From a virus (Duplodnaviria > Heunggongvirae > Uroviricota > Caudoviricetes), in the IMG/VR virus record IMGVR_UViG_2545824713_000005: DNA of 24,551 bases. One strand, 5' to 3'. Below, in pieces: positions 2,020 to 21,565 of this stretch. Each line of letters begins with the position of its first letter. Position 1 is the first letter of the stretch. Made by a program: the position numbers and the translations under genes. The notes under the pieces are model-generated. The model saw nothing but the letters and a program-made list of their open reading frames with translations, searched no databases and had not been told where the DNA came from.

Positions 2020-2403
2020 ATGCGTGATATTCAGATGGTTCTTGAGCGTTGGGGAGCGTGGGCGGCTAATAATCATGAAGATGTGACCTGGTCGTCCATT
2101 GCCGCCGGTTTTAAGGGATTAATTACTTCAAAAGTAAAATCTCGCCCGCAATGTTGTGACGATGACGCGATGATTATTTGCGGGTGCATGGCCCGTCTGA
2201 AAAAGAACAACAGCGATTTGCACGATTTATTAGTAGATTATTATGTAGTCGGTATGACATTCATGTCACTGGCAGGTAAGCATTGCTGCTCTGATGGTTA
2301 TATCGGGAAAAGGTTACAGAAGGCTGAGGGCATAATTGAAGGGATGTTAATGGCATTAGATATCCGGTTAGAGATGGATATCGTTGTTAATAACTCTAAT
2401 TAA
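2020..2403 (+). CDS. quuD: Q-family late-gene antiterminator (QuuD-like, 127 aa)
   Basis: In-frame ATG inside track ORF 2005-2403: [24 protein letters not shown]...[16 protein letters not shown]...; Cys-rich zinc-binding motifs; position after rusA/ylcG. Confidence 0.85.
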
Positions 2404-2417
2404 TATGCCAATTGTTT

Positions 2418-2454
2418 ACTAAAAATTATTAAAAATGGGGCGTTGAGACGCCCC
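2418..2454 (-). terminator. Candidate intrinsic terminator for leftward (nmpC) transcription
   Basis: 7-bp GC stem GGGGCGT/ACGCCCC with 4-nt loop at 2437-2454; on the minus strand it is followed by a T-rich run (complement of AAAAATTATTAAAAAT). Confidence 0.45.
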
Positions 2455-2520
2455 CAAAAATAAAGGGTAATATATAACAGAAGGTTTATATAGTTAGAAG
2501 CAAGGTTGTGCTCCTAAAGG

Positions 2521-2581
2521 AAGTGGCTTGAGGGAGCCACTTATATGTTGGGGAGGCAAAGCCTCCCGCAACATATCTTTT
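2521..2581 (+). terminator. Two adjacent hairpins between quuD and the nmpC 3' end; candidate rightward terminator
   Basis: Hairpin AAGTGGCT-TGAGGG-AGCCACTT (2521-2542), then a long hairpin with inner stem GGGAGGC-AAA-GCCTCCC (2543-2576) followed by CTTTT on the plus strand. Confidence 0.35.
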
Positions 2582-2591
2582 AGTAATCAAA

Positions 2592-3674
2592 TTAGAACTG
2601 GTAAACCATACCTACAGCAACGATATCATCGGTAGCAACGCCAGATGCTTTCGTGAAATCGCTCTTATCAATCAGGTTGATTTTGTAATCAACAAAAGTG
2701 GACATATTTTTGTTGAAGTAATAGGTTGCACCTACATCAATATATTCAACCAGGTCCTGATCACCCCACGCACCCAAGTCTTTTCCTTTAGATTGCAGGT
2801 AAGCAACGGACGGACGCAGACCGAAGTCGAACTGATATTGTGCAACTACTTCGAAGTTTTGTGCTTTGTTGGCAATATGGTTATTACCAAAAACAGTCAT
2901 GTTCTGGGTTTCAGAATAGGTGGTAGCCAGATAGATGTTGTTCGCATCATATTTCAGACCAGCTGCCCATACTTCAGCATTTTGACCAGATGCATTCAGG
3001 CTGTTGTTACCGTAGATAACCTGATTATTAGTGCGGTCAGATTTAGCATAGGTTGCACCTACACCGAATCCTTCATACTCATAAGTAGTGGAGAAACCGA
3101 AACCATCACCATTAGCTTCAGTTACGTCAGTGCGGTCATTTTTACCCTGATACTGAGCAGCAAAGTTCAGACCATCAACCAGACCAAAGAAGTCATTGTT
3201 ACGATAAGTTGCAACACCTGTGGTGCGACCAGTCATGAATACATCTGTTTGGGTCCAGGTATCGCCACCGAATTCTGGCAGAACGTCGGTCCATGCACCA
3301 ATATCGTATGCTACACCGTAGTTACGGCCATAATCGATGGAGCCGTAGTCACCGAATTTCAGGCCAGCGAAGGCAAGACGGGTTTTATCTTTGGAGGAAC
3401 CTTGAGATTCAGCGCGGTTGCCTTTGAATTCATATTCCCACTGACCGAAACCAGTCAGTTGATCGTTGATTTGGGTTTCACCTTTGAAGCCAAGACGGGC
3501 ATAAGTAGTATCACCATCATCTGCATCATTAGAGGAGAAGTAGTGCTTAGCATTAACTTTCCCGTACAGATCCAGCTTGTTACTGTCTTTATTATAAATT
3601 TCAGCTGCCTGAGCAGACATCGCCATCAGTACTGATGCAGCTACAGCAGAAATTGCCACTGTTAATTTTTTCAT
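2592..3674 (-). CDS. nmpC: Outer-membrane general porin, NmpC/Lc (OmpC/OmpF family), apparently intact
   Basis: 360-aa protein from [23 protein letters not shown] (signal peptide) AEIYNK... to C-terminal ...VGMVYQF (terminal Phe, typical beta-barrel OMP). The track ORF 2592-3734 is an upstream extension. No IS interruption seen. Confidence 0.9.
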
Positions 3675-3734
3675 CGTGAGCCCTTTTTTTGAACTATTAT
3701 TAAAAAATGATGTCACTGCGCGATAAATATTCAT

Positions 3735-4099
3735 CTAATCAATGTGATTATTTCAAGATGTAAGTTTTGGTTTCTCATTTGATTTGTGAAGTAGATCTCT
3801 ATTTTTATCTGAACTTTTTCTATCGAATCCTATTCATGGCTCTTGGCTGAATAAAAATAAATCTATTGGCCAATTTATATTAATGGCTGTTATTTATAAG
3901 TGCTCTATAATTTGAAGGTTCAATTTAAACCAGCTAAAAATAACGCTGGAAATTATTTGTTGGTTATTTGTTGAGATTTGCTTATGTATTTGTAGTGGTG
4001 TTTTCAATACTCGGTAGCATTCTCGCAAATATCATTTAGTGGTTTACGTACGTAAAAAATTGGTTATGCTGTTAAGAGTGGTTACTTCGTCACACAGCT
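3735..4099. promoter_or_regulatory. AT-rich intergenic region: nmpC promoter/upstream region plus a candidate displaced late promoter (PR'-like, -10 TATAAT at 3906-3911)
   Basis: About 360 bp non-coding and strongly AT-rich upstream of nmpC on the minus strand; a perfect TATAAT on the plus strand lies about 195 bp before the hairpin at 4101-4133; -35 is weak. Confidence 0.35.
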
Positions 4100-4100
4100 T

Positions 4101-4133
4101 AAACCCGCCGTCGAGCGGGTTTTTCCATTTTTT
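4101..4133 (+). terminator. Intrinsic terminator upstream of the lysis genes (tR'-like)
   Basis: 8-bp stem AAACCCGC/GCGGGTTT with 6-nt loop, followed by TTTTTCCATTTTTT; about 130 bp upstream of the holin start. Confidence 0.55.
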
Positions 4134-4261
4134 GAGTCTCGATATTAGCTGATAACCCAATACCTGAGTTATTCACTGACTCCGAGTCTGTTACGTTTCT
4201 GCTTTTTTGCGATACGTTGTATTCCCTCAATTTACACCCGCTTTGTCTGCGAGGTGGGGTT

Positions 4262-4477
4262 ATGAAATCCATGGATAAGTTAACAACGGGTGTCGCCTAT
4301 GGCACCTCAGCAGGTAGTGCCGGTTACTGGTTTTTACAGCTGCTCGATAAAGTCACGCCCTCACAGTGGGCAGCAATAGGTGTGCTGGGTAGCTTGGTAT
4401 TTGGCCTGCTGACGTACCTGACAAACCTTTATTTCAAGATTAAAGAAGATAAGCGCAAGGCTGCGAGAGGTGAATAA
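4262..4477 (+). CDS. essD: Phage-21-type class II holin (pinholin) with dual-start motif
   Basis: 71-aa [71 protein letters not shown]; two TM segments; Met1-Lys-Ser-Met4 dual start; GAGGTGGGG RBS. Confidence 0.85.
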
Positions 4478-4974
4478 TGCCTCCATCATTACGAAAAGCC
4501 GTTGCTGCTGCTATTGGTGGCGGAGCAATTGCTATAGCATCAGTGTTAATCACTGGCCCAAGTGGTAACGATGGTCTGGAAGGTGTCAGCTACATACCAT
4601 ACAAAGATATCGTTGGCGTATGGACTGTATGTCACGGGCATACAGGAAAAGACATCATTCCCGGTAAAACGTATACCGAAGCAGAATGCAAAGCCCTCCT
4701 GAATAAAGACCTTGCCACGGTCGCCAGACAAATTAACCCGTACATCAAAGTCGATATACCGGAAACAACGCGCGGCGCTCTTTATTCGTTCGTCTATAAC
4801 GTGGGCGCAGGCAATTTCAGAACATCGACGCTTCTTCGCAAAATCAACCAGGGCGATATCAATGGCGCATGTGACCAGCTACGTCGCTGGACATACGCTG
4901 GCGGTAAGCAATGGAAAGGGCTGATGACTCGCCGTGAGATTGAGCGTGAAGTCTGTTTGTGGGGGCAGCAATGA
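4477..4974 (+). CDS. rrrD: SAR endolysin (lysozyme, R21-like)
   Basis: 165 aa; N-terminal signal-anchor-release segment [20 protein letters not shown], then lysozyme core (EG.SY...D..G.WT); start overlaps holin stop (TAATG). Confidence 0.85.
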
Positions 4975-5438
4975 GCAGAGTAACCGCGATTATCTCCGCT
5001 CTGGTTATCTGCATCATCGTCTGCCTGTCATGGGCTGTTAATCATTACCGTGATAACGCCATCGCCTATAAAGAACAGCGTGATAAAAAAGTCAGTGAAC
5101 TGGAGAAGGCGAACGCCACCATTACTGACATGCAGCAGCGCCAGCGTGATGCTGATGCACTCGATGATAAATACACGAAGGAGTTAGCTGATGCGAAAGC
5201 TGAAAATGATGCTCTTCGGCGCAAGCTTGATAATGGTGGTCGGGTGCTCGTCAAAGGAAAATGCCCTGTGCCATCCTCAGCCGAAACCTCCAGCGCCTCC
5301 GGCATGGGCAATGATGCCACCGTCGAACTCTCTCCAGTTGCTGGACGAAACGTTCTCGGTATCCGGGACGGAATTATCCGCGACCAAACAGCACTGAGAA
5401 CGCTTCAGGAATACATCAGGACGCAATGCCTTCGATGA
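4971..5438 (+). CDS. rzpD: Rz-like inner-membrane spanin (i-spanin)
   Basis: Start at [26 protein letters not shown] (N-terminal TM), then charged coiled-coil region; ATGA overlap with endolysin stop. Confidence 0.75.
5191..5397 (+). CDS. rzoD: Rz1-like outer-membrane lipoprotein spanin (o-spanin), embedded in the +1 frame of Rz
   Basis: [21 protein letters not shown]: signal peptide with lipobox VVGC, Pro-rich mature part (PQPKPPAPP); wholly nested inside the Rz gene; GAAGGAG RBS. Confidence 0.7.
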
Positions 5439-21492: not shown

Positions 21493-21494
21493 AG

Positions 21495-21565
21495 TTGAAG
21501 CCCCAACTGCGGGAACAGTCAGGGCTTCGGTTGTCGGTAAATTCGTGGAGAAAAACCAACATGAA
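21495..21565 (-). ncRNA. Candidate sar-like antisense RNA covering the arc-ant intercistronic region and ant RBS
   Basis: By analogy with P22 immI: minus-strand TATACT -10 overlapping the ant start, and hairpin GAAGCCC...GGGCTTC at about 21503-21532. Ends not determined. Confidence 0.3.

Follow-up and report, generated by a model that had tools for sequence, protein, structure and literature searches.

A predicted Q-dependent late regulatory cassette of the 933W/H-19B type, displaced from Q by a porin gene in a lambdoid prophage

In phage lambda, late transcription is controlled at PR'-qut-tR': a constitutive promoter is followed by an intrinsic terminator, which is overridden by Q and lies before the S-R-Rz genes. 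The Q protein of phage 21 (Q21) binds a DNA element beside its promoter and engages a sigma-containing RNA polymerase that is paused just downstream. As a torus at the RNA exit channel, Q21 prevents terminator hairpins. Yin et al. (bioRxiv 10.1101/651190) refer to the corresponding Pfam family, PF06530, as the Q21/Q933W family. A late-promoter module of this family is already annotated in the Shiga-toxin phage 933W, with features labeled “pR' putative late promoter,” “qut,” and “terminator ... homologous to tR'.” For the two Sakai Stx phages, Sy et al. 2020 (PMC7547250) identified the start of the PR' transcript by dRNA-seq, and it lies 258 nt before a 3' end identified by Term-seq.

We analyzed a window of 24,551 nucleotides (the whole stretch of DNA) that is a lambdoid prophage. 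Its + strand encodes ninB, ybcO, rusA, and a Q gene; these are followed by a porin gene on the - strand and then by lysis genes on the + strand. The Q gene (2020..2403, +) encodes a QuuD-type antiterminator of 127 amino acids (PF06530, E = 3.5e-53). It is 80% identical to Q from H-19B, and its similarity to the solved Q21 chains (6P18 and 6JNX) is weak but significant (E = 7.6e-7) and covers residues 8-87 only. The porin gene (2592..3674, -; Porin_1, E = 3e-153) is of the lc/nmpC type and is reverse-oriented cargo between Q and the predicted late promoter. Porins at homologous loci are named lc (in PA-2), nmpC (in DLP12 and 434), or OmpD/OmpC. The terminator scan found the porin gene's own intrinsic terminator at 2437..2454 (-), where GGGGCGTCTCAACGCCCC is followed by ATTTTTAATA and which abuts the end of Q. 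The lysis cassette (4262..5438, +) contains the first late genes: a phage-21-type holin (4262-4477, +; Phage_holin_2_1) with its ATG at 4262, a SAR lysozyme (4477-4974, +; Phage_lysozyme), and Rz/Rz1 (4971-5438, +), which were identified as open reading frames and are annotated at the homologous loci of 434 and DLP12. Open reading frames for the terminase and portal lie further downstream, also on the + strand. Phage 434, PA-2 (with the lc porin), and DLP12 of E. coli K-12 (quuD-nmpC-essD-rrrD-rzpD) are annotated with this gene order.

Two other features of the window are mentioned for completeness. The open reading frame at 1-176, which runs off the left end (…WVDWYNNRRLLERLGHTPPAEAEKAYY) and lies upstream of the nin region, resembles the C-terminal end of a transposase. 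Also, there is a sar antisense RNA at 21493-21560 on the - strand (Rfam RF00262, 94 bits), which implies that the prophage also has a P22-type immI (ant) region.

We propose that 4043-4133, between the porin and the holin, is a Q-dependent late regulatory cassette of the 933W/H-19B type (Q21/Q933W family), which has been moved 1.64 kb from Q by the reverse-oriented porin cassette, and that it operates by the mechanism that we describe below. We put the probability of this reading at roughly 0.82. The case is built from sequence comparisons: homology to a PR' that is annotated and whose start site is mapped, local conservation, covariation of a palindrome with the Q clade, and a predicted hairpin. 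From these, we infer that the element has promoter activity, a palindrome to which Q binds, and a pause site.

The predicted PR' (4043..4070, +) has TTTACG at 4043-4048 as its -35, a 16-nt spacer, and TATGCT at 4065-4070 as its -10. It aligns base for base with the annotated promoter of 933W (TTTACG-16-TATCAT). Only 8 of the 12 positions of PR' agree with the consensus, and our promoter scan did not report it. We transferred the start site from Sakai after applying an offset of 142 nt between genome versions (the offset is our own derivation). After this correction, the Sakai start is an A that lies seven nucleotides past TATCAT, and the 3' end is the T-run of the second terminator. That both ends land on the expected features is internally consistent and supports the mapping. 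The homologous base in the window is A4077, which corresponds to position 577,229 of K-12 and is 185 nt before the ATG of the holin and about 25 bases 5' of the terminator. By homology, then, 4043-4070 is predicted to be a sigma-70 PR', at a position that corresponds to the mapped PR' start.

The predicted start lies within TGTTAAGAGTGGTTAC (4070..4085, +; -7 to +9), which is nearly invariant over four clades of Q, down to 45% protein identity. In related modules, the near-invariant TGTTAAGAGTGGTYAC spans the start site, and the core motif AAGAGTGGTTAC occurs just once in the entire window. This region (4070-4085) probably holds the determinants of the sigma-dependent pause, or qut; in the 933W record, “qut” is annotated at the positions that correspond to +8 to +15. 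We found no conserved pause hexamer (second base A, sixth base T) between -7 and +9, and TACATT in 933W corresponds to TACTTC here.

The spacer between the porin and the holin is highly uneven in its conservation. We aligned 56 distinct porin-carrying sequences and computed the per-site divergence relative to the window. The divergence was 1.3% for the promoter (4041-4076) and 2.0% for the leader and terminator (4077-4124). In the other segments it was 10% (3801-3879), 16% (3880-3920), 12% (3921-4040), or 13.5% (4125-4261). When we searched phage genomes with the spacer, porin-carrying phages shared all of it, and the Shigella phages SfII and SfIV shared only about 77 bp (4047-4123). In other E. 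coli genomes, there are matches that start at about 4042 or stop at 4124 and are flanked by other genes. This marks the module as a mosaic unit in its own right.

Part of this conserved segment was given a different role in the 1986 GenBank record for PA-2 (J02580). The CRP sites in that record map to 4077-4097 and to about 3782-3802, and the first of these coincides exactly with the first 21 nt (+1 to +21) of the leader predicted from PR'. If the record is right, then GTGG-N8-(C/T)CAC at 4077-4097 is a CRP site for the divergent porin gene and not a late leader. However, the half-sites are two bases wider apart than in the CRP consensus (TGTGA-N6-TCACA), the left half is poor, and the segment is conserved directly after Q in phages that have no porin. 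We consider it highly improbable that this segment is a CRP site instead of a late leader.

The initial annotation of this DNA had also proposed that the late promoter was displaced, and its placement of the promoter beyond the porin, rather than beside Q, is upheld by the homology of 4043-4124 to pR', qut, and the terminator of 933W. The specific site that it chose, a TATAAT at 3906-3911, is not. The hexamer is indeed present on the + strand, and the distances were given correctly: it is about 195 nt 5' of the terminator, and the terminator is 129 bp before the ATG of the holin (about 130 was claimed). If this were the late promoter, then, unless Q acts, transcription would end at 4133 and give a leader RNA of the 6S type, about 190-220 nt long, and this geometry does resemble PR'-tR' of lambda. 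The -10 hexamer is perfect, its best -35 (ATGGCT, with a 17-nt spacer) matches at 3 of 6 positions, and the TATAAT is kept in 49 of the 56 distinct porin-carrying sequences. However, a TATAAT is expected by chance (P = 0.45): at least one was present on the + strand in 45% of 2000 dinucleotide shuffles of the 587-nt spacer, whose GC content is 35% overall and 30% upstream of the module (3675-4040). Because only three positions of the -35 match, the site failed the promoter scan. The candidate -35 varies among sequences, and of the segments that we compared, the one around the hexamer (3880-3920) is the least conserved. Also, the TATAAT lies within the porin cassette's own AT-rich upstream region, which is common only to porin-carrying relatives. 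It is missing from every relative of the same Q family that has other cargo or none, and all of those relatives keep 4043-4124. It is not accompanied by any clade-specific element. Furthermore, the K-12 spacer between nmpC and essD is listed as an H-NS-bound “promoter island” (PMC3661553). We judge that this TATAAT is a chance or promoter-island hexamer with no part in late control, and it is very unlikely to be the late promoter; the homologous promoter is at 4043-4070.

The idea of a leader of about 195 nt, as in the 6S RNA of lambda, does not survive either, as the predicted start at 4077 and the T-run at 4120-4124, which is at about 577,275 in K-12, imply a leader of about 44-48 nt. The folding of the whole 216-nt leader from 3918 is no better than that of shuffled sequences (z = -1.4). 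At the gathering thresholds, Rfam has no match in 3880-4133, and its sole match is the sar RNA.

To see how the module is placed relative to Q, we used 335 loci that encode relatives of Q, taken from four scans of viral contigs and from annotated records. The module is downstream of Q and on the same strand at 276 of these loci. It is directly after Q in the Stx1 phage H-19B and also right after Q in 933W and Sakai Sp5; in PhiR40_1 and SfII, it comes after one or two reverse-strand genes that are 3' of Q. Across the 276 loci, the module is adjacent to Q in 41 cases and is displaced by an insert in 235. As for the 59 loci without the module, roughly half end at most about 2 kb past Q, and about 28 (such as that of phage 1H12) have at least 3 kb of downstream sequence. 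In each of the 269 modules compared, there is a -10 hexamer at the same offset whose second base is A and whose sixth is T (TAnnnT in 243 and CAGTAT in 26). In the window, the module core is 1673 nt past the stop codon of Q instead of immediately adjacent to it as in the textbook arrangement. Since displacement is more common than adjacency among the loci of the Q933W family, distance from Q is a matter of layout and not of mechanism.

A PR' right after Q is nevertheless the canonical layout, as found in lambda, 21, 82, and 933W. If the window followed it, then PR' would lie directly 3' of Q (within 2404-2590), polymerase modified by Q would have to cross the porin gene in the antisense direction to reach the lysis genes, and 4043-4133 would be no more than an inactive relic. 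But the + strand of 2404-2590 contains no promoter-like site and no copy of the conserved core, the hairpins there are without T-runs, and the region is common only to porin-carrying relatives. A relic would not diverge 6- to 10-fold less than its flanks, as 4043-4124 does. We give very little credence to a PR' in 2404-2590.

Phage 1H12 was a special case. It had suggested to us a phage-82-like PR' right after Q (TTGCTG-17-TAATGT ... TAGAAT ... terminator). We dropped this candidate because PF06530 is the Q21/Q933W family and because 1H12 proved to have the module's promoter half, TTTACAATCGTAAAAA-N-TATGAT, at 1.9 kb past Q (NC_049947, about 43,281-43,314). The transcribed region of 1H12 differs from that of the module: it begins with ATCTATAGTTG and has a good -10-like TATAGT. 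A promoter half with a foreign leader suggests that the promoter with its palindrome and the leader can be exchanged separately.

A part of the promoter that varies with Q is a perfect 14-bp palindrome, TTTACGTACGTAAA, at 4043..4056 (-34 to -21), which overlaps the -35 and which is a candidate for the Q-binding element. The type of palindrome, at a fixed offset, fits the clade of Q at 267 of 269 loci, or at 102 of 104 after dereplication. The window's clade of Q goes with TTTACRWWCGTAA, the SfII-type clade with ACGCGTACGCA, and both PhiR5_1-type clades with GCGGYCCGCA; among the variants that accompany clades other than the window's are ACGCGTACGCA and GCGGTCCGCA. Such a pattern would arise if Q, which is variable, reads the palindrome and the host's RNA polymerase, which is invariant, reads the rest.

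The terminator at 4101..4133 (+), which the initial annotation had described as a strong intrinsic terminator and as an equivalent of tR', is also found by our terminator scan, folds at -12 to -13.9 kcal/mol, and is homologous to the feature that is annotated as homologous to tR' in 933W, so it is retained as an equivalent of tR'. Its predicted stem has 8 bp (AAACCCGC/GCGGGTTT, 4101-4108 with 4115-4122) and a 6-nt loop and is followed by TTCCATTTTTT to 4133. There are two T-runs, T5 at 4120-4124 and T6 at 4128-4133. Relative to the predicted start, the hairpin is at +25 to +46 and the T-run ends at +48. The scan found 5 terminator-like matches in total, versus 3.2 +/- 1.6 expected, so the count alone is unremarkable. 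Unlike a chance match, though, 4101-4133 is conserved across distant relatives. Among 100 distinct related leaders, 67 have a hairpin of -7 kcal/mol or below directly before the first T-run, and most of the remaining leaders have a weaker stem of 4-5 bp before T7-8. The stems in these leaders belong to two different sequence families.

Termination at this site may be leaky. In the Stx phages, polymerase evidently passes the homologous first hairpin even when Q is absent, because the mapped PR' RNA is 258 nt long and ends at a second terminator. The terminator scan found no second terminator before the holin in the window. We also found no homologue of StxS (the last 74 nt of the 258-nt PR' RNA, with its terminator): across the whole window, the matches to +49 to +258 from Sakai were chance matches of just 11-13 nt. 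As a separate observation, in 16 of the 56 distinct porin-carrying sequences, including PA-2, GCGGG at 4115-4119 is changed to GCTGG, which weakens the hairpin to about -6.7 kcal/mol.

A different promoter for the lysis genes has been described for DLP12. RpoE reportedly drives this promoter, “essDp,” and Q is said to act on it. We reconstructed its published position from the primers of Pasqua et al. 2021 only. Their fragment spans -121 to +650 relative to the start reported by Rueggeberg et al. 2015, and on the basis of the primers, the +1 would be at about 3722 in the window. Just upstream of this implied +1, at 3691-3717, there is a sigma-E-like motif (GAACTA-N16-TCACT). The lysis genes might thus be transcribed from a sigma-E-type promoter at about 3691-3717, in which case 4101-4133 would be an attenuator within a 540-nt leader. 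However, the motif is 17-43 nt from the start codon of the porin, on the opposite strand, and is within the porin cassette, so it is absent from relatives with other cargo that share the Q family and the downstream module. Therefore, it is not the conserved Q-loading promoter of the family. Also, the characterized Q proteins in the literature that we cite all load at a sigma-70 promoter-proximal pause. We consider it unlikely that essDp takes the place of PR', but an additional promoter could coexist with PR', and it could be stress-responsive. For K-12 itself, the RefSeq record has no promoter or terminator annotated at the essD block, and the supplements of Adams 2021 (K-12 start and 3'-end data) have no entry for essD.

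If our reading of 4043-4133 is correct, then late control in this prophage would work as follows. RNA polymerase with sigma-70 would start from PR' (TTTACG-16-TATGCT) at about A4077. Without Q, it would stop at the hairpin and T-run (+25 to +48) and an RNA of about 48 nt would be released, and so the lysis and morphogenesis genes would, we propose, stay off. After induction, Q (2020-2403) would be made from the early rightward transcript. Q would bind beside the promoter, where the palindrome that differs between clades is its most likely site, and would load onto polymerase held within the invariant stretch near the beginning of the transcript. Like Q21 in the solved complexes, Q would then keep the hairpin from forming in the RNA exit channel. 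The modified polymerase would read through the terminator into the genes for the holin, lysozyme, and Rz/Rz1 and onward. In terms of annotation, late transcription of the window would begin at about 4077. Because the porin cassette is upstream of PR', the porin gene is outside of the late transcript and is not in the late operon.

This locus is common. The spacer between the porin and the holin (587-588 bp) is present at 80% coverage or above in 2,356 of 5,426 complete E. coli genomes, and the same block lies upstream of essD in about 2,350 of them, including K-12 with its DLP12. The porin cassette lies between two imperfect direct copies of a sequence of about 21 nt (TCCCGCAACATATCTTTTAGT at 2564-2584 and TCTCGCAAATATCATTTAGT at 4021-4040), and only 0.2% of shuffles score equally high. 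We searched the 5,426 E. coli genomes for a porin-less “empty site” (2404-2584 joined to 4042 onward) and found none.

The porin is just one of many kinds of cargo that separate Q from PR'. At the 235 loci with a displaced module, the gap between Q and PR' (2404-4042 in the window) is occupied by 39 unrelated clusters of insert sequences, and in almost all of the clusters, the long open reading frames are on the reverse strand. Representatives of the inserts match known or candidate defense proteins: KwaB of Kiwa (E = 5e-144), the KAP NTPase of PDC-S20 (E = 1e-177), NsnA / GmrSD_N, and PDC-M68A. Another has an NYN nuclease domain (Pfam, E = 1.4e-9), for which the PADLOC match is weak (E of about 5e-4), and another is an NA37 nucleoid-associated protein, which no defense model matched. 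In a shallow search of the literature, we found no published account of a hotspot between Q and PR' or of work on the quuD promoter.

These observations lead to a broader idea, to which we give a little less than even odds. The gap between Q and PR' may be a general and dedicated insertion hotspot of lambdoid phages of the Q933W family. Its reverse-oriented cargo (porins, Kiwa, KAP-NTPase, GmrSD-like, and other defense genes) would be expressed in the lysogen, outside of the late transcript, and would end at a terminator that abuts Q. The other part of this idea is that the palindrome co-evolves with Q and is an unrecognized binding site for it. If both parts hold, then the published sigma-E “essDp” of DLP12 is not the promoter at which Q loads. 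The two leads from this work are, then, a palindrome that may be bound by Q proteins of the Q933W family (the family that controls the expression of Shiga toxin) and a hotspot for cargo and defense genes between Q and PR'.

Among known systems, the late regulatory cassette of 933W, H-19B, and Sakai Sp5 and Sp15 is the most similar, and by comparison with it, the copy in the window is ordinary. The Q family is the same, and so is the start region (AAGAGTGGTTAC). The promoters are homologous, of the form TTTACG-16-TATNNT, and a homologous first hairpin with its T-run lies at an equal distance. In 933W, the cassette overlaps the end of Q, whereas here it is 1.64 kb away, behind a porin gene on the reverse strand. 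The -10 is TATGCT here versus TATCAT in 933W, and the segment annotated as qut is ACTTCGTC here versus ACATTGCC in 933W. The Stx phages have a 210-nt StxS portion and a second terminator at +258, and the window has neither. Directly downstream are lysis genes here versus tRNAs and stx in 933W.

Phage 21 shares the family of Q (PF06530) and, it appears, the logic of Q21 and PR'21: a promoter, a Q-binding element, a sigma-dependent pause, and a terminator. The similarity to Q21 is distant, and the Q21 element is a direct repeat with two 8-bp subsites, unlike the inverted repeat that is our candidate. With lambda, the predicted element shares a promoter and then a terminator that would be overridden by Q, placed before the lysis genes. 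However, the Q of lambda is unrelated (PF03589 versus PF06530 here), the leader is 194 nt in lambda versus a predicted 48 nt or so here, and the cassette here is not adjacent to Q. Finally, DLP12 of K-12 has the same locus. As far as the position of its “essDp,” which Pasqua et al. 2021 cite from Rueggeberg et al. 2013 and 2015, can be placed from the published primers, that +1 is about 355 nt upstream of the module, and so the PR' that we predict by homology is a different site. The spacer of DLP12 is 95.9% identical to that of the window, and the module is identical.
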